Shown: in pieces, positions 3,029 through 40,250 of the stretch
Position numbering within the stretch: position 1 is the stretch's first letter
Layout of the letters: each line of letters opens with the position of its first letter
Virus record (IMG/VR): IMGVR_UViG_3300035156_000145
Span: 1 to 40,810 of that record
Source of the DNA: a virus
Direction: 5' to 3' (one strand)
DNA length: 40,810 bases
Notes under the pieces: model-generated
The model's input: only the letters and a program-made list of their open reading frames with translations
Told to the model about the DNA's origin: nothing
Databases searched by the model: none
Translations under genes and position numbers: made by a program

Positions 3029-3295
3029 TCAGGGCGGCGTCACTTGGGCGCGGCGTGGCTTTGTTGCTGGCAGCTTTGTAAGCTCGGGCCAGATCGCCTG
3101 CCAGTTCTCGGGGCAAAGTTCCTGGCGCGTCACTTCGCCGCCAGTCGCTTGCTCGATCTGAACGCAACGTTCAGGGGAGATTGGAGCCTTGCCGCTTGCC
3201 ATCTGCGACAGGTACGAAGTTGAGACGCCGACAAGCTGCGTGGCTAACCACGTCGCGCGTCCGCGCTCGGCTGATAGGTAGGTTTTGAGGTTCAT
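3029..3295 (-). CDS. cro: Cro-like HTH regulator (YdaS/Cro family)
   Basis: HTH segment ATWLATQLVGVSTSYLSQMASGK. Divergent from the cI-like gene across an operator-containing 72-bp spacer. Confidence 0.75.
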   Translation of the reverse strand: MNLKTYLSAERGRATWLATQLVGVSTSYLSQMASGKAPISPERCVQIEQATGGEVTRQELCPENWQAIWPELTKLPATKPRRAQVTPP

Positions 3296-3367: not shown

Positions 3368-3751
3368 ATGGACATAGTTGAAACTAGGCGGGAGAACCTG
3401 CGGCGGTGGATTCGAAAGAATGGCACGCCAAAAAACGAGAAGAGCATGTTTTCTCAGCTCAAAGGAACGGCGTCATTCGGGGAGAAGATTGCCCGCCGTC
3501 TTGAGGATGCGTACGGGATGGGTGCGGGATATTTGGACACGCCTAACGCGCCGGTTGCTGTGGTTGCGCCGCCTGCTGATACTGATCTTGAAGCTATGTT
3601 GAAGCTAACGATCCAAACCGCCGAGGAGATGCGAGTGCTAATCACCTATAGGCGTAGCGGCCCGGATGGTAAGGACATCATCAACGGGGCTGTCGAGAGT
3701 GCGCTCGGGCTGATAAGGGAGGGCGCGCGGGACGAGGGTGAGTCTCGGTAG
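3368..3751 (+). CDS. cI: cI-like repressor, HTH only (no S24 peptidase domain)
   Basis: Divergent from cro. Segment FSQLKGTASFGEKIARRLEDAYGMGAGYLD resembles an XRE/434-type HTH. At 127 aa there are no Ser/Lys autocleavage motifs. Confidence 0.65.
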   Translation: MDIVETRRENLRRWIRKNGTPKNEKSMFSQLKGTASFGEKIARRLEDAYGMGAGYLDTPNAPVAVVAPPADTDLEAMLKLTIQTAEEMRVLITYRRSGPDGKDIINGAVESALGLIREGARDEGESR

Positions 3752-14021: not shown

Positions 14022-14999
14022 TCACAATTTTCCGGCGATATCCTCGGCTGATTCGTTGTAATAGATCATCAGCTTGCGGATATCCTTGTGCCCCACCATG
14101 CGCGCCAAGTCGAGAACATGCAGTTTCTTGGCTAGGCGCGTAATCGCTTCGTGGCGCGTATCGTGAAAGGTCATATCTTCGATCTTGGTTCGATCCCTGC
14201 GCGCAGTCCTGAACATCGCATCCAGTGACGCCGCCGTGATACCGAAGCCGTCTGGCACAAGCTTCAATATCTGAATGGCGCGAGGGGAGAGCGGTACATC
14301 GCGGGACTCGCCATTCTTGTTGATCGTCTCGGGGAGGTGAGCAACGCGCCCTTTAATCCAATCCGGCTGTAACGCACAAATCTCGCCGGCGCGCATCCCC
14401 GTTTCAATGGCGAACAGGAAGGCAGCGGCAATGCTCTGCTGCTTCGTAACTGGCGCCCGCTCACGCCACCCGAGCGCATGGCATATCTCTTTGATTTCCG
14501 CTTCGCTGATGCGCCGGAATCGAGGTTTGTTTCCCTTGGGGCGCTTTACATCTGTCGTCGGACTGCCTACGATCCATTTCCATTCTTTGCGCGCCACAGT
14601 GAACACGTTGGACATCAGGTTCATTTCGCGCTGAACGGTTGATCCTTGCACTGCGCGAATATCGGGGTCAGTAGGGTGTAGGCGCTCATCGCGCCAAGCG
14701 GCCACGTGGGAGGCGTCAACGTCCCGCATCCTCACATCACCCAAGGGTGTTCGCCCGAATGCCGCCAGGCGCAACGATTCCCACCTATGCCCCTTCTTTT
14801 TCTTCGATACTTCGCGCTCGTACTTCTCGAAAGCGTCCCTACAGGTTTGCGTGGTTGCGCCGCCTCCGGCGCTTGCTGTGCGCTGGCTGGCTTCCCATGC
14901 AAGTGCTGCTGCCTTGGTGTCGAAGGTGCCGGACGTGCGCTTGCCCTTCACCATAACCCGGTGCTGCCACTTTCCATCAACCTTGCGCGGTGCCGCCAT
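14022..14999 (-). CDS. int: Tyrosine site-specific integrase
   Basis: Catalytic-domain signatures: ETGMRAGEI, HDTRHEAITRLA and MVGHKDIRKLMIYY. Flanked by the attP-like region. Confidence 0.9.
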   Translation of the reverse strand: MAAPRKVDGKWQHRVMVKGKRTSGTFDTKAAALAWEASQRTASAGGGATTQTCRDAFEKYEREVSKKKKGHRWESLRLAAFGRTPLGDVRMRDVDASHVAAWRDERLHPTDPDIRAVQGSTVQREMNLMSNVFTVARKEWKWIVGSPTTDVKRPKGNKPRFRRISEAEIKEICHALGWRERAPVTKQQSIAAAFLFAIETGMRAGEICALQPDWIKGRVAHLPETINKNGESRDVPLSPRAIQILKLVPDGFGITAASLDAMFRTARRDRTKIEDMTFHDTRHEAITRLAKKLHVLDLARMVGHKDIRKLMIYYNESAEDIAGKL

Positions 15000-18159: not shown

Positions 18160-19851
18160 TTAGCGATTAACCGCGACCGGGGCAGCGCCGTAGATACTTT
18201 CCAGCAGCTTGTTAGTGCGCGCAGACATAGGGCCAGGGCCATCAAGTAGCATGTTTTTTAAGCCATTGCTGTTCAGAAGCGCATTGGTGCCGCGCCCCAC
18301 GCCAACTCCAACAGCCAAGCCAGGCAATCCGCCTGTGACAGCGCCGCCGACTCCTAAAACAGCCCGTTGCATTGAGCCGTGCGCGCCTTCCCGAGCCTTG
18401 ACGAACTGAGCGGATATATCGGCCAACTCCTGCAAATCCTTATTGCCGATGTTCTTCATGTTCGCCAGCCGTGCAACTGAGATTTCGCCCTCGGCACCGT
18501 TCTTTGCCACCTTTTCAAGCGCCATCATGTTGCCGTACTGCTTGCGCGTTTCCGCGAAGGCGGCTGCTTTGGTCGGCCCGATTGAGCGGTTGAGTGCCTC
18601 AATTAATGCCTTCTTCATTTCGATAGCGTGGAATGCTTCCGGCGTGTTGCGGGCGCCGATCCGATCCAGTGTGCGCTTGATGTTGTAGGCTGCCTGTCCG
18701 TAGACTTCGCCAGTCGCGCCCTTTTCAAGCAGTTCGTCAATCTGCCCCTTGATGGCCTTGAAGCCGTCCGCGCCCAGCTCGCGGTTCGCTGCCGCCTCAA
18801 TTGAGCCGATTTCGTTCATGAAATCGTTGTCGATGCGTACCGTATTATTTTTCAGTACATCGTCGAACTTCGCGCCAAGCACATCCTGCGCCTTGCGCAG
18901 TGCCCCGGTCACATTGTCCGAGTCCTGCCCGAACGTGCGTGACAGTGCGCGGTTAAGCCCTGACTCCATCTTGTTCATTGTCCCAGCTCGGCCACTGAAC
19001 GGCACATAGTCCAGTGCGGACGCCAGTGCATTGAGCGGCTTGCTATTGGCGATTCGGTCCGCTGGGATCGTGATACCCAATTCTTTCGCGCGGCGAGCAA
19101 GCGCGGCCACCTCGGCGGACACCTTCCCGCCAACGACTGAGTTGCGAACTGCGCCGCCGATGGCACCGGCCAGCTTCGTTGCACCAGGCAGCACCGTACC
19201 GACACCAGCGCCGGTCAATCCGTTCTTTGGGTCAACCATCGTAGCCGACGCGCCGCCACTGATCGCGCCGCCTGCCATGCGGGTAAGCAGATTGCCGCCC
19301 GGACCAGCAGTAAAGCCACTCGTACGGACTGCGGTTGCCAGATTGTTGACAGCGGGCGCCGACATACCGACACGAGCGAGCACAGGAGCAGAGCGCACGA
19401 TACCCTGTCCGATTGCCCCGCCTGCGCCCATCGTGCCGGCCACTTCCGTAGCAAGCTTGCCAGTCTGGTACGTGAACGACTTTGGATCGGCGCCGGCATA
19501 TTCCAGGCCATCATCCATTGCTTGCCGGCGTTCCTCGTTGCGAGAAAGCTTCGGCTTACCAGTGACCAAACCTGAAATGCTCGGTCCACGGTCGTTGTAG
19601 TACGCGTCCTTTGCCTTGTCGAGAGGCCAGAGAATAGTTGCGCCAATGGAGCCAGCGCCGCGCAGGGCGCCGCCAACAAGGTTCCCGGCACTTTGCCCAA
19701 GCTCTCCGATTAGCGAAGGTTGCTCGATAACAATCGGAGTAGGCTTCACAGGCGTTGCGCTGACTACTTCGTCATCGTCCCAGGGGTTGGCGACTTTCTT
19801 TGCGGCCTTTGGCTTGCTGATAACCTCGTCGTTGTCCCAAGGATTAGCCAT
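18160..19851 (-). CDS. Internal virion / DNA-ejection protein (563 aa, Gly-rich)
   Basis: Large Gly/Ala-rich protein with repeated ANPWD(N/D)DEV N-terminal motifs. Position fits podovirus ejection proteins. Confidence 0.6.
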   Translation of the reverse strand: MANPWDNDEVISKPKAAKKVANPWDDDEVVSATPVKPTPIVIEQPSLIGELGQSAGNLVGGALRGAGSIGATILWPLDKAKDAYYNDRGPSISGLVTGKPKLSRNEERRQAMDDGLEYAGADPKSFTYQTGKLATEVAGTMGAGGAIGQGIVRSAPVLARVGMSAPAVNNLATAVRTSGFTAGPGGNLLTRMAGGAISGGASATMVDPKNGLTGAGVGTVLPGATKLAGAIGGAVRNSVVGGKVSAEVAALARRAKELGITIPADRIANSKPLNALASALDYVPFSGRAGTMNKMESGLNRALSRTFGQDSDNVTGALRKAQDVLGAKFDDVLKNNTVRIDNDFMNEIGSIEAAANRELGADGFKAIKGQIDELLEKGATGEVYGQAAYNIKRTLDRIGARNTPEAFHAIEMKKALIEALNRSIGPTKAAAFAETRKQYGNMMALEKVAKNGAEGEISVARLANMKNIGNKDLQELADISAQFVKAREGAHGSMQRAVLGVGGAVTGGLPGLAVGVGVGRGTNALLNSNGLKNMLLDGPGPMSARTNKLLESIYGAAPVAVNR

Positions 19852-27215: not shown

Positions 27216-27458
27216 TTATGCAGCGTCCGATTCCTCGGATAGTGCTGCGGCGTTTCCTTGACGCTCGTATTGCAGCGCCTCGGGTAAGTTAATGAGGGCG
27301 GTCAGGGCACGGATTGCCCCGCGTGTTTGTTCGTCGTTCGCGCTGATTAGCCGCGCTGTCAATTCCGCGATGTGCTCATTCAGGTGCGCTACCAGGGCGG
27401 GCGCCTTGAGCGCTGCTGTCAGGGCGTCAATCTGCGCAATGCGGTTGGCAAGGTTCAA
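27216..27458 (-). CDS. Hypothetical protein (80 aa, helical)
   Basis: ORF coupled to the portal stop. Confidence 0.5.
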   Translation of the reverse strand: MNLANRIAQIDALTAALKAPALVAHLNEHIAELTARLISANDEQTRGAIRALTALINLPEALQYERQGNAAALSEESDAA

Positions 27459-29608
27459 AGCTCAGGCTCCATCGGCGCTTCGGGCATAAAAAAGCCCGCG
27501 TCATCGGCGGGCTGTTCTTCTGCGGGCATTTCTTCTGGCAGCTCGGCCATCATTTCCGGCTCAGGCGGGGCTTCCTCCGTCTGCTCGGGCATTGGCTCCT
27601 GCTCCTGCTCGGCTATCGGCTCGTTCGGCGTGATATCCGGGCTAAGCGACAGATCAAGGCCAAGCTCGTTTGCAAGCTGCATAGCAGCGTCAGGCGTCAG
27701 GAATGGCACAAGAAGCTTCATGCGCTCGGTCTGCGCCTTGTAGGCATCAACGCGCAGCTTCTGCATCGCCTCATCGCGGCCGGCGTCGGCTTCGTTGTAT
27801 TTCTCGCCCAACTCTTGCAGCGACTGTTCGAGCATCTGGTTCTGCTGCTGCATCTGCTGCATCTCGGCCTGCACCTGTGGCGGGATCTTCTTGCCGTCTT
27901 CTGGCTTGAGGATAGGCGATTCCTTGCCGATCTGCATCACGTCCCAGGTCTGCTGCAACAGCTCGGTAACGTCCACCTTCTCAGCCGTCATCGGGTTGGA
28001 CAGGGCGAAGTCAGCGAAGGCGCGAAGCTTGTTCGTCAATACTTCCTTCTGCATGAAGGAGCTTGTACCAGTGGCCTGCCAATCCATGAAGCTTGACTTG
28101 CCAAATTCCTTGATCTGCGCCCACATCGCTGCGGCTTCGTCGCCGTGAATCTTCTGTACGGTCTGCGGCTCAAGATACTTGAGGTTCCACTCGATGATTG
28201 CCTCGACCATCGGCTCAATCCAGTTGGAATCAATGTGCTGGATGACTTCCTTAATCGGCAAGGACGAGGCAGACATAATCATGCTGATGCCGGTAGCCGT
28301 CTTATTCAGGTTGCTGGCGTCGTCGCCCTGCGTGTACTTGGTAATGCCGGTGTCGTCGTCGCTCATCTGCTCAGACACGCGCAGCACGTCCATCCAGCCG
28401 CCTGTAATGTCCGGCTCGGTATGTTCCATGATGGCGTTTTTGCGCTCGTCAGGGGACAGCCCCGGCTTGAACTGATACACCTTGCCGGGGAACTTGCGGA
28501 AGTCCTCCGTGGGCATAAAGCATGAGCGGTCAACCGATTTCGTACCAAGCAGGGCCATTGCCTTGCCTTCCATGAACAAGCGGAAAGCGGCGTTCGTTAC
28601 TTTCTGATGCGGCGCGTTGTTCTCGGCCACACCCACGCCCCAAATCTCGTGCGCGACTTCCTCGTAAGTGCAGGAGTGCGCCGGCATCTTCTGCCCGTAT
28701 GGCGACTCATTTACCTTTACGACGACGCCACCTGCCATGATGGCGACAACATCAACCATTTCAGCCATGTTGGCCTGCTCGTCTGGCTGATTGCCCTCGC
28801 TCAGGGCCGAGCGAGGCACCTTGCCAAAGAAGCGTGCGACCTTGATCCGTGCGTTGCGGTGCCAATACTCGACGTTGCCACGCATCTGGCCTGCAATCTC
28901 GCCGCCAGTCTCCGCGCCGGCAGAAGACGCGCCGCTGAGCGCCGCAACGATGTTCTTGTAGCTCTTATCGTTCTTCCAGGCTGCGACCGTGTGAGGGCTT
29001 TCCATCGTCACCCAAAACACGCCCAGGCCATCATTGAGGCGGCGCGCTTCCGGGTCCGGATACACGTCGAGCGTGTTGCTCAGTTCGAAGTAAGGGAAGT
29101 CGAATTCATACTTGCTTTCCTTGATCGCCATTACCCCAGCCGAGTTGTCGGCAGCGGTCTCGACCAAGCATTCCTTGCGTACGAACGGGCCGAACACAAA
29201 GCCGGTGCCATAGGTCGCCAGGGTGTCCACACCGTTCTTCAGCAGGTGCTTGAAGTCCATGCGCTCAAGCTGCTCGGTTAGGATATCCTCGACGGTATCG
29301 GCAAACTTCGCCAAACTCTCATCGCTGGGGGTGGTATCGAACGGCATCATCCCATTGCCGAACAGGGCATCGTTGATCTTGGCACGGGCTGCACGCACCT
29401 TGTTGCGAGTCGAGCCGATGAACAGGCCGGCTGTCTTGCTGCCCTTGGCCGCGCCACTGCCCTTTGTATCGTCGTCACGCGGGATGCGCATCACGTCCTG
29501 ATAGCAGTCGAGCATCTTCAACTCTTGCGGCTTGCGCGAACGCTCCCACTCCATCAGGCGTGATTCCAGCAGCGAAGCTAGCGCCGTGGTGGTGTGAATT
29601 TCGCTCAT
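27455..29608 (-). CDS. Portal protein
   Basis: 717 aa immediately after TerL, with an acidic Pro/Glu-rich C-terminal tail. Confidence 0.8.
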   Translation of the reverse strand: MSEIHTTTALASLLESRLMEWERSRKPQELKMLDCYQDVMRIPRDDDTKGSGAAKGSKTAGLFIGSTRNKVRAARAKINDALFGNGMMPFDTTPSDESLAKFADTVEDILTEQLERMDFKHLLKNGVDTLATYGTGFVFGPFVRKECLVETAADNSAGVMAIKESKYEFDFPYFELSNTLDVYPDPEARRLNDGLGVFWVTMESPHTVAAWKNDKSYKNIVAALSGASSAGAETGGEIAGQMRGNVEYWHRNARIKVARFFGKVPRSALSEGNQPDEQANMAEMVDVVAIMAGGVVVKVNESPYGQKMPAHSCTYEEVAHEIWGVGVAENNAPHQKVTNAAFRLFMEGKAMALLGTKSVDRSCFMPTEDFRKFPGKVYQFKPGLSPDERKNAIMEHTEPDITGGWMDVLRVSEQMSDDDTGITKYTQGDDASNLNKTATGISMIMSASSLPIKEVIQHIDSNWIEPMVEAIIEWNLKYLEPQTVQKIHGDEAAAMWAQIKEFGKSSFMDWQATGTSSFMQKEVLTNKLRAFADFALSNPMTAEKVDVTELLQQTWDVMQIGKESPILKPEDGKKIPPQVQAEMQQMQQQNQMLEQSLQELGEKYNEADAGRDEAMQKLRVDAYKAQTERMKLLVPFLTPDAAMQLANELGLDLSLSPDITPNEPIAEQEQEPMPEQTEEAPPEPEMMAELPEEMPAEEQPADDAGFFMPEAPMEPEL

Positions 29609-36153: not shown

Positions 36154-36246
36154 TGGTCGGGGCAGGCGGGATTCGAACCCGCGCACACTATGTGAAAAGT
36201 CGCGTTGTCAGCGGCTAGCGACATTGACCACTCGTCCACCGCCCCG
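36154..36246 (-). tRNA. tRNA-like gene, class-II-like (long variable arm), isotype undetermined; non-canonical anticodon arm
   Basis: Reverse complement has:
- 7-8 bp acceptor pairing (GGGGCGG/CTGCCCC)
- Ser/Tyr-type D arm GAC-GAGTGGTCAAT-GTC
- variable stem CACA-TAG-TGTG
- perfect T arm GCGGG-TTCGAAT-CCCGC
- ACCA end
The anticodon arm has 3 extra nt, a C-A mismatch and no U33. Confidence 0.55.
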
Positions 36247-38422: not shown

Positions 38423-39022
38423 CTATGTGCGCGAATTGGTGAGGGCGCGAAGCCGTGCGCGATACTCGTCCTTCATGGCCTGTAGCTCGGGGATCGTCCA
38501 TTTCTGCTGAGTGGTGTCGCCCTCTAAAGCTTCGACTGCGGCTAGCCCGATCCGAGCAATCAGGCGCGGTCGGTACTCGCGGATGTTCCCCGACAGGTGG
38601 TTGTTGCAAATGCTGCAAGCCTTGTGAATGTTCGCCTCACAGAATCGCGTACCCGGCGAGCTGCCCACGCTGCGGTAGTGCGATGCATGCCATTGACCGT
38701 CCCATGTGGCCGGCCGGTCGCAGCTCACGCACGGCAATTCCGCGTCTCTGGCTCTGATCCAAGCATTCAGCGCTGTCTGAGCTTCCTTGAGGTAGTCCGC
38801 GCGGCGCTTGAGCTTGGCAAGCCCCTCCTGGCGCTCCTTGCGGTCTTTGCGGACGCGCTCAGCCACAGCGAACAGGGCAGCGCAGATCGGGCCACAGCAC
38901 TTATGGGTCATCGAGCGCGGCTCGAATGGCTGGCGGCACGACTTGACGGCACACTTGCGAACTCGCACCTTTGGCTCTTTGCTCGGCACGGTGCGGACAA
39001 ACTGCGAGCGGGTGAGGGTCAT
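38423..39022 (-). CDS. ninG: NinG/Rap-family recombination endonuclease
   Basis: Cys clusters (CAVKSC...HKCCGPIC; PCVSC...HASHYRSVG...CSICNNHLSGN) match the lambda NinG family layout. Confidence 0.8.
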   Translation of the reverse strand: MTLTRSQFVRTVPSKEPKVRVRKCAVKSCRQPFEPRSMTHKCCGPICAALFAVAERVRKDRKERQEGLAKLKRRADYLKEAQTALNAWIRARDAELPCVSCDRPATWDGQWHASHYRSVGSSPGTRFCEANIHKACSICNNHLSGNIREYRPRLIARIGLAAVEALEGDTTQQKWTIPELQAMKDEYRARLRALTNSRT

Positions 39023-39042
39023 GCGGCCACCCGTGCGCTAAA

Positions 39043-39086
39043 TATATACACAAATAATTCTTGCATTCTTATTTGGTGTGTATATA
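39043..39086. promoter_or_regulatory. Long imperfect inverted repeat bracketing the cassette promoter (candidate operator)
   Basis: TATATACACA (39043-39052) pairs with TGTGTATATA (39077-39086). Inner arms CAAATAA (39051-57) pair with TTATTTG (39069-75). The repeat is centred on the -35. Confidence 0.6.
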
Positions 39087-39088
39087 AT
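39061..39088 (+). promoter_or_regulatory. Near-consensus sigma70 promoter TTGCAT-N16-TATAAT, opposite to surrounding operon
   Basis: Read directly in an AT-rich gap. Followed by an AAGGGGA RBS and ATG 39125. Confidence 0.7.
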
Positions 39089-39124
39089 GAAGTCATTGCA
39101 GCACACAACCAAAGGGGAACCAAA

Positions 39125-39373
39125 ATGAAAAGGCAAATGCAAAACACGATTTCGCGCAAGTGGTCTGATGCAAGCGGGGACCGCACCCATAAGTTGACGA
39201 CCATCGTTGAATTTGAGGGCTGCAACTTCGTTACCTTGGCTATCGTTTCCGAGGAAGGCCGCCCACCGTTTGCAGCTGACCCGCTCGAAACTACAGGTGC
39301 AGTCGCTGCCAATTTCATCAATAATCCGGCGATGCTGAAGGCTCTTGGGTTCACACCTATCGCAGCAGCATAG
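39125..39373 (+). CDS. ORFan (82 aa), first gene of the opposite-strand cassette
   Basis: ATG with an AAGGGGA RBS downstream of the strong promoter. No TM segment and no recognised motif. Confidence 0.6.
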   Translation: MKRQMQNTISRKWSDASGDRTHKLTTIVEFEGCNFVTLAIVSEEGRPPFAADPLETTGAVAANFINNPAMLKALGFTPIAAA

Positions 39374-39382
39374 GAGGCTGAA

Positions 39383-39583
39383 ATGTTGAAGACCGATTCC
39401 ACCAAAGCCACTGATGGGGCATCTGATGAGGCTGCGAATGCGCGAGGCCGCCCTGCTTCCATGGTCAATGGCAAGCGCGTCAACGTGTACCTCGATGCGG
39501 CCAGCTTGGAGCGAGCGGCAAAGCTTGGCGATGGCAATGTCAGCGAGGGCATCAGGCGATCGCTCATGCTGCCTCCAACATAA
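39383..39583 (+). CDS. Ribbon-helix-helix (CopG/Arc/ParG-like) DNA-binding protein, second gene of cassette
   Basis: Perfect AGGAGG RBS. RHH core KRVNVYLDAASLERAAKLGDGNVSEGIRRSL after a disordered N-terminal tail. Confidence 0.7.
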   Translation: MLKTDSTKATDGASDEAANARGRPASMVNGKRVNVYLDAASLERAAKLGDGNVSEGIRRSLMLPPT

Positions 39584-40250
39584 GAGAGCGATCCGGGCGG
39601 TTTGCCTCGAACGCCGCACGCGCGAATCCGCAAGGTGTCGCGCTGCGGAAGTTTGAGCGCTCCGGACCGGGTGGCGCCGCGTGGATGCGGTTGTCTGGCT
39701 CGCCAATACCAGTGAGCAGGAACGGGTCAGGCATAACAAAGCCGCCCCCAGTCCATAGGCAAGTCGTCTTCGTATAGTTGTCGTCCGCGCAATAGCCGGT
39801 GTACTGGTGCGGGTGGAATGTGTGCTGCGGTTTGCCGAAGATGGACGAGAACACGCTCACCGGGTTTTCGAAGCCCCATGCGCAGCCGGCCAGCATTCCC
39901 ACAGTGCGGCACTGCTCCGCCACAATCGCGGCTTTCTCCTGAAACTTCGGGTCGACCTTGCGCTTTTCCTCGAACCAGCGGGCGCCCGACACGGCCACAT
40001 CGGTGCATGGCGGGAAGCCGAACACAAATACAACACGCTCGCGCCGGATGATTTCACCCAAGCGAGGCATCGCGTCCAGAATGGTGCCGGCGATGCGTTC
40101 GACCATCCCGCTATTGCTGCTCACTTGGTGTTGAGGGTCAACCAGCACGATGCGGTAGCCGGCCTCAAGCCACGGTTGCGCCATATTCATGGTCAGGCTG
40201 CACAGGAAGATCGCAGTACCCTTGCCGAAGAAATCCATTTGAGTAGTCAT
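39564..40250 (-). CDS. Minimal DNA (cytosine-5)-methyltransferase-like protein (228 aa)
   Basis: FGFPPCTDVAVSG (motif IV PPC-like), GFENPVS (motif VI ENV-like) and C-terminal RSATPCGFARA. Start set at ATG 40250 (MTTQMDFFGKG). Confidence 0.5.
   Translation of the reverse strand: MTTQMDFFGKGTAIFLCSLTMNMAQPWLEAGYRIVLVDPQHQVSSNSGMVERIAGTILDAMPRLGEIIRRERVVFVFGFPPCTDVAVSGARWFEEKRKVDPKFQEKAAIVAEQCRTVGMLAGCAWGFENPVSVFSSIFGKPQHTFHPHQYTGYCADDNYTKTTCLWTGGGFVMPDPFLLTGIGEPDNRIHAAPPGPERSNFRSATPCGFARAAFEANRPDRSLMLEAA

Follow-up and report, generated by a model that had tools for sequence, protein, structure and literature searches.

A putatively autorepressed ribbon-helix-helix cassette of probable acr-aca type in a temperate phage contig

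We have found that a viral contig of 40,810 nucleotides (nt; IMG/VR record IMGVR_UViG_3300035156_000145, positions 1 to 40,810, hereafter the window) carries a compact plus-strand cassette of two small genes whose promoter and covarying operator arms are conserved among relatives, whose regulator is conserved together with a changing cargo, and one of whose relatives is a fusion to an anti-CRISPR domain. The first gene, open reading frame 1 (ORF1), encodes an 82-residue (aa) cargo protein and the second, ORF2, a 66-aa ribbon-helix-helix (RHH) regulator (Table 1). We think it somewhat probable that this is a horizontally acquired, autorepressed accessory cassette of the acr-aca type whose cargo most likely acts against host defence; the regulatory half of this reading is well supported, and the anti-defence role of ORF1 is suggested by association. 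The preliminary description of this DNA had taken the combination of promoter, palindromic operator, small effector and RHH autoregulator to point to one of three locus types. That general reading holds and is strengthened by the comparative data, which favour the acr-aca type (a shared module, about 45 cargos and an AcrIE4-like fusion), disfavour a toxin-antitoxin module and do not support a locus like P22 immI.

The operator arms TATATACACA and TGTGTATATA (39077-39086) are perfect inverted repeats of each other over 10 nt and stand 24 nt apart; as had been proposed, the right arm lies over the -10 hexamer. When the gap in which it stands was shuffled 3000 times with dinucleotides preserved, such a repeat arose in 14 of the shuffled sequences, and longer arms are possible only with a 3-nt indel (AAATAA / TTATTT). 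In the register shared by the related loci described below, the left arm reads ATATACACAA (39044-39053), the gap between arms is 22 nt, and a single position of the left arm fails to match the right arm read in reverse complement. The exact sequence GGTGTGTATATAAT occurs once in the window, at the cassette promoter, and a search of the window with the operator sequence for a second regulated promoter found none. A reading of the operator as a LexA box was dropped because, as judged by eye, it holds no CTGT-N8-ACAG. The promoter itself, TTGCAT-N16-TATAAT, is present as first described, although the term near-consensus then applied to it was too strong, since its -35 hexamer matches TTGACA at three of six positions and a scan for consensus promoters is silent here. 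The case for the promoter rests on its conservation. The position of the -10 would place the transcription start near 39095, at the head of a short leader in which we found no RNA structure (z = +1.55) and no Rfam match. Both ribosome-binding sites that had been noted are present, and the AGGAGG of the RHH gene (39372-39377) overlaps the ORF1 stop codon, so that translational coupling of the two genes is possible.

That conservation is extensive. The layout ATACACAC-N-cTTGCA-N-GTGTGTATATAAT was found in 48 distinct contexts upstream of RHH-family genes, over which the promoter consensus is tATAC(A/G)CACAAAA..CTTGCAa..N..TTTtGTG(T/C)GTATATAAT, and the column consensus identifies the conserved elements as the arms, the -35 and the -10. 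In 34 of the 48 contexts the left arm differs at no more than two positions from the reverse-complemented right arm, and 27 of these 34 have a gap of 22 nt between the arms; the right arm is kept in almost all related loci. At the variable position the arms covary (T:A in 21 contexts, C:G in 14; three contexts are exceptions). Of the 48 contexts, 34 have TATAAT, and the equivalents of the -35, at the same spacing, are TTGCAA (14), TTGCAT (5) and TTGACA, TTGACT or TTGACG (7). The observation is confirmed as real and non-random. Half-sites that covary, stand about three helical turns apart and include one over the -10 fit a dimer-of-dimers repressor that would exclude RNA polymerase, and we infer that the RHH protein binds the two arms and represses its own promoter.

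We note that many related RHH operons have a conserved leader of 60-85 nt (for example L005:98-169, L022:3235-3304, L074:1500-1570, L065:533-605, L034:3402-3464 and L070:3054-3136, where L denotes a locus), and that the window has no such leader. The conserved leader aligns with the aca10-associated RNA probe from a 5' untranslated region described in PMC13551039 (..ACCACCG..CCNGG-CGGGTT-CCNGG..GATAAAGGAG). Its hairpin stems vary by locus yet remain complementary (CCGG/CCGG, CCAGG/CCTGG, GCCAG/CTGGC and CCGGT/ACCGG; CCCGG/CCGGG for aca10), and RNAalifold, run on a crude alignment of 18 leader sequences, predicted nothing. A second type of leader is found at L029-L042, L046, L073 and L078.

In the regulator a disordered N-terminus leads to an RGRP motif, after which comes KRVNVYLD-AASLERAAKLG-DGNVSEGIRRSL. 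AlphaFold models an extended segment at residues 31-37 and helices at 39-48 and 53-62, with a predicted local distance difference test score (pLDDT) of 89-95 for residues 30-62; the 29 residues before these vary and are modelled with low confidence, and the protein stops 4-5 residues past helix 2. The modelled strand-helix-helix topology bears out the RHH fold proposed for this protein, and since it is joined by no significant database match, the call rests on that topology and on the motif. PHROGs, NCBIfam and PADLOC gave no match for the protein, the family profile searched against PDB sequences and the ORF1 family profile returned designed repeat proteins or nothing, and the Foldseek query was a monomeric model and is uninformative. 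The family itself is well populated, with 43 matches in the protein collection and, by profile scans, 79 phage or prophage loci (66 viral contigs and 13 genomes). The genomes are mostly of Betaproteobacteria and include a Cupriavidus plasmid, Janthinobacterium, Noviherbaspirillum, Undibacterium, Dechloromonas, Chitinilyticum and one genome from the Rhodocyclaceae. The family has a near-invariant core, GRPxxMxGGKRVNVYLDxxSLxxAxxLGxGNVSEGIRxAL, and the RHH always stands in the last gene of the operon or forms the C-terminal domain of the last protein; at most loci it is the C-terminal domain of a protein of 115-150 aa with a varying N-terminal domain. We also note that at L084:5247-5601, and likewise at L085 and L086, a 77-aa ORF ends in RGRP directly before its stop codon and a 48-aa RHH ORF begins in another frame across a run of five Gs, an arrangement that resembles a split or frameshifted fusion of an N-terminal domain to the RHH, downstream of an ORF1 homologue.

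What stands between this promoter and the RHH domain changes from locus to locus. Gene calling gives one to three small genes there, and an all-versus-all BLASTP of the cargo genes and N-terminal domains from about 45 operons yields 46 clusters, one of which is the RHH gene; about 45 unrelated cargo clusters, as small genes or fused domains, thus share a single RHH family, which is the acr-aca feature of a conserved regulator downstream of variable small cargo. The exchange can be seen at one and the same NinG/methylase site, where L001 carries an ORF1 homologue and L003 a gene of 84 aa unrelated to it; the promoter, the leader and the RHH are almost the same. A validated anti-CRISPR (Acr) or a homologue of one is absent from the operon in the window and is found in the relative at L087, where the protein P0023 has an N-terminal anti-CRISPR domain fused to the RHH. 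This domain matches Pfam AcrF31 over the full model (E 4.9e-26) and the AcrIE4-F7 structure PDB 7VZM over residues 2-53 (E 3.9e-15), and the family operator and promoter lie directly upstream of the gene. On the same 1.3-kb metagenomic contig the fusion gene (299-832, minus) is divergent from a Tad2-like gene (PF11195; 992-1288, plus), and L087 may be a small anti-defence neighbourhood.

Almost none of the other cargo has a Pfam or PHROG annotation. None of 44 cargo representatives, from which P0023 was deliberately excluded, matched a known Acr family, and two cargo proteins are annotated, one as a MucR/Ros-type zinc-finger protein (E 5.2e-15) and one as P22 NinX-like (E 4.3e-16); by an assignment deduced from their sequences these lie at about L065:794-1246 and L070:3134-3571, respectively. 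No solved structure was found for the common fused N-terminal domains or for the L003 cargo. Across the loci the flanking genes include integrases, lysis genes, terminases and orphan methylases, which suggests that the cassettes are placed where modules meet, like acquired accessory genes. A screen of 150 flanking ORFs for anti-defence genes matched 48 families, of which the 25 most frequent are all ordinary phage module genes.

ORF1 had been described as an ORFan in no family that could be recognised. The first part of this claim is not upheld, as a small family of homologues exists, about seven of them close: P0053, P0054, P0060 and P0061 are 54-59% identical to it, and P0055 and P0059 are 33-36% identical. 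These were found by an exhaustive HMMER search and a profile search (a word-indexed protein search returned ORF1 alone), and more distant relatives share the motif VEIVSESGRPPFA. The second part largely stands, in that searches of Pfam, PHROGs, NCBIfam, PADLOC and PDB sequences found nothing for ORF1. AlphaFold, given the family alignment, predicts three long antiparallel strands followed by short helices (pLDDT 91; predicted TM-score 0.75), and the structural comparison that had been suggested gave no significant neighbour for this model or for that of the RHH protein, the best Foldseek hits of ORF1 being at E 0.27 and TM 0.26 in the PDB and at E 0.23 and TM 0.43 in BFVD. ORF1 homologues stand behind the family promoter and with an RHH gene at L001 and L084-86, and at L083, L088 and L089 the homologue is the first gene after an unrelated sigma-70-like promoter with no RHH in the fetched DNA, some contigs being short. 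This occurrence in both settings suggests that ORF1 behaves as mobile early-gene cargo that is not bound to the RHH regulator. The distant relatives P0062-P0065 (114-119 aa; L090:483-836 and L091:366-719) have longer N-termini, another C-terminus and another promoter, and no RHH nearby.

The window is a temperate phage contig with a P22-like or lambdoid layout. As the preliminary description had it, the cassette interrupts an otherwise continuous run of minus-strand genes: from 40781 down to about 36600 all other plausible genes, among them those for the methyltransferase and NinG, are on the minus strand. The gap that holds the promoter is AT-rich (102 nt at 40% GC, with a 50-nt core at 22%, against 58.5% for the whole window), and the GC content at third codon positions (GC3) falls from 0.73-0.76 in the flanking genes to 0.58 and 0.64 in the two cassette genes, a foreign-looking composition such as acquisition of the cassette would give. 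The last 20 nt of the RHH gene (39564-39583) lie within the 3' end of the methyltransferase gene, which converges on it, and a scan of the plus strand downstream of the RHH gene gave no terminator-like site. Only some 20 nt separate the NinG start codon from the left operator arm (39022-39030). Elsewhere in the window ARAGORN calls a tRNA-like gene (36154-36246, minus) whose anticodon has four bases (agcc); the nin/Q-like region stands on one side of it and the packaging genes on the other. A phage database gave no match for the DNA of the region, for either cassette protein by tblastn, or for a 502-aa ORF of the window that is possibly a terminase.

Table 1. Features of the cassette and of the surrounding contig, in window coordinates
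Feature	Position	Strand	Remarks
Left operator arm	39043..39053	+	Upstream of the -35; perfect arm TATATACACA at 39043-39052
-35 hexamer TTGCAT	39061-39066	+	Followed by a 16-nt spacer to TATAAT
Right operator arm GTGTGTATAT	39076..39088	+	Overlaps the -10 TATAAT (39083-39088)
Short leader	39095..39124	+	Ribosome-binding site AAGGGGA at 39112-39118
ORF1	39125-39373	+	82 aa, pI 6.5; candidate anti-defence effector
RHH regulator gene (ORF2)	39383-39583	+	66 aa; last gene of the cassette
NinG	38423-39022	-	Flanks the cassette; Pfam E 8.8e-50
DNA methyltransferase	39564-40250	-	Flanks the cassette; phrog_757, E 6.8e-66
Helicase	275-1210
Cro-like YdaS/HTH_3 gene	3029-3295	-
127-aa ORF divergent from the Cro-like gene	3368-3751	+	Candidate short repressor; no Pfam match
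Integrase	14022-14999		Marks the phage as temperate
Ejection protein	18160-19851
Portal	27455-29608

How the cassette might work can be put as follows. The sigma-70-type promoter would fire when the phage enters the cell, or at a low level in the lysogen, and would yield the cargo protein and, by translational coupling, the RHH protein. RHH dimers would then occupy both 10-bp arms, whose centres are some three helical turns apart; with one arm upstream of the -35 and the other over the -10, RNA polymerase would be excluded. Expression would be a short early burst followed by shut-off to a low steady level, a time course that we deduce from this arrangement, and the cargo protein would inhibit some host defence system. 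The overlap with the convergent gene and the lack of a terminator-like site suggest that unrepressed transcription of the cassette should disturb the minus-strand operon, and repression may serve to keep the promoter from head-on transcription into these replication, nin and late genes. Repression by Aca1 (JBD30) and Aca2 (ZF40) reportedly protects neighbouring phage transcription, and the need for such repression is said to be known for Aca1. With these and other classical acr-aca operons the cassette shares a strong early promoter, an inverted-repeat operator and variable small cargo upstream of a conserved autorepressor; it differs in that the regulator has a predicted RHH fold, not the helix-turn-helix of Aca1 and Aca2, in having no validated Acr and in a leader without an RNA motif.

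The closest comparison is with Aca14 of the Pasteurella multocida csx20-aca14 operons, the only RHH Aca described (Feussner et al., NAR 2026, PMC13551039). Aca14 has 66 residues according to the Methods of that study (the sequence in the preprint supplement, from which we took both the protein, WP_005725436.1, and its operator, counts about 67), binds an AT-rich inverted repeat over the -10, and acts as repressor of a neighbouring operon as well as its own (PMC13551039). Both regulators are thus small RHH proteins of 66 residues whose gene closes a short operon of small genes, either anti-defence or uncharacterised, and at both loci the -10 is overlapped by an AT-rich inverted repeat whose core is TGTATA. 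Autorepression has been demonstrated for Aca14 and is predicted for the regulator of the window. The operators differ in geometry, that of Aca14 being a compact 20-bp palindrome, TGTATATG-N4-CATATACA, between the -35 and the -10, whereas that of the window family has two 10-bp arms 22 nt apart that bracket the -35. Aca14 is modelled with a helical extension at its N-terminus, where the window family is disordered with a conserved GRP motif, and, unlike Aca14, most members of the window family are fusions, with hosts that are mainly Betaproteobacteria. For these fused relatives, one of which has an AcrIE4-like variable domain, the self-regulating Acr fusions AcrIIA1, AcrIF25 (with an RHH domain) and AcrIE10 provide a precedent, although the window encodes its cargo and its regulator in two separate genes. 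In the window family the RHH forms the C-terminal end, whereas the anti-CRISPR activity of AcrIF25 resides in its C-terminal domain and its RHH, which is therefore presumably N-terminal, is dispensable.

Several findings weigh against the acr-aca reading. A sigma-70 consensus scan does not list the cassette promoter, in keeping with its weak -35, and the RHH protein has no significant match in Pfam, PDB sequences or Foldseek. Membership of the Aca14 family was tried and rejected (hhalign of the family profile, with a single sequence as template, which could miss a link through intermediate sequences, probability 0.3% and E 0.22; BLASTP E 3.3), so that the regulator, which by its sequence features would work like Aca14, falls outside that family by the tests made. 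ORF1 shows no homology to any known Acr or anti-defence protein and, unlike many acidic Acrs, is near-neutral (pI 6.5). The recognised anti-CRISPR is one of about 45 cargo types, and the NinX-like and MucR/Ros-like cargo suggests that the module may control various kinds of accessory gene. ORF1 nonetheless most likely inhibits some host defence system, to judge from the company that it keeps: it is a good candidate because the module is common to dozens of phages, its cargo is varied, and one such cargo is a known anti-CRISPR.

It is conceivable, if on balance unlikely, that the cassette is an RHH-controlled accessory element, or moron, with the same regulation and a cargo that serves superinfection exclusion, host takeover or lysogen fitness instead of anti-defence. 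This would be in keeping with cargo that is nearly all unannotated and includes the NinX-like and MucR/Ros-like proteins, with the place of related cassettes at module boundaries beside integrases, lysis genes, terminases and methylases, with the low GC3 of the cassette, and with the lack of Acr homology in ORF1. However, hypervariable small early genes together with a conserved autorepressor are the architecture of acr-aca operons (PMC13551039), the sole cargo of known function is an anti-CRISPR domain, and the neighbouring genes include orphan methylases of anti-restriction type and the Tad2-like gene.

Less probable still is that ORF1 is a small antirepressor, or a similar effector of the choice between lysis and lysogeny, silenced by the RHH protein as ant is by Arc and Mnt in the immI region of P22. 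Arc and Mnt are RHH repressors, their operators lie over a strong promoter, and the phage of the window is likewise temperate and P22-like or lambdoid. The preliminary description had remarked that the cI-like repressor has no cleavage domain, and indeed the 127-aa candidate repressor divergent from the Cro-like gene is too short to have room for one of the LexA type, which keeps this explanation alive. Nevertheless, ORF1 has no Ant, KilAC or BRO homology, and the window has no Ant homologue, one RHH gene instead of two and a single operator with no divergent promoter pair. The swap of cargo at the same site in L003, and indeed some 45 cargo types for one regulator, would be unexpected of a partner specific to a repressor, and ORF1 homologues occur in other phages behind unrelated promoters. 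Finally, we regard it as very improbable that the cassette is a toxin-antitoxin module of type II with ORF1 as a first-placed toxin and the RHH protein as antitoxin: the two small co-transcribed genes, overlapping or coupled, the palindromic and presumably autoregulated promoter, the RHH domain and weak matches of the RHH in three fused relatives to the N-terminal domain of CcdA (E 0.15-0.23) do recall modules with RHH antitoxins such as CcdAB, ParDE and RelBE, but the gene order differs, the regulator ends too soon after helix 2 and has too variable and disordered an N-terminus to offer a toxin-binding or neutralisation domain, most relatives fuse the RHH to unrelated N-terminal domains, the regulator is not tied to one cargo, pairing is not obligate (the fetched DNA shows no RHH beside the ORF1 homologues of L083, L088 and L089 or the distant ones of L090 and L091), and ORF1 is unlike known toxin folds and matches no PADLOC or Pfam toxin family.

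Conserved Aca regulators are the main handle for the discovery of anti-CRISPR and other anti-defence proteins by guilt by association. What is new here is an RHH regulator family, the geometry of its operator, and a cargo protein that has no fold neighbour in the PDB or BFVD. Tentatively, and with somewhat less confidence than we give to the acr-aca reading, we suggest that this RHH protein founds a second, independent Aca family with its own operator geometry, that it marks a hypervariable anti-defence hot spot in phages of Betaproteobacteria, and that ORF1 may open a family of immune inhibitors with a new fold, with about 45 further inhibitor families alongside it. If so, the DNA signature ATACACAC-N-TTGCA-N-GTGTGTATATAAT and the protein motif GRPxxMxGGKRVNVYLD...GNVSEGIR would together provide a searchable marker, one that reaches into poorly sampled hosts, the environmental Betaproteobacteria, and flags about 45 uncharacterised families of small proteins, including a confidently folded protein of 82 aa. 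It would also mean that RHH regulators have been recruited to the Aca role more than once.

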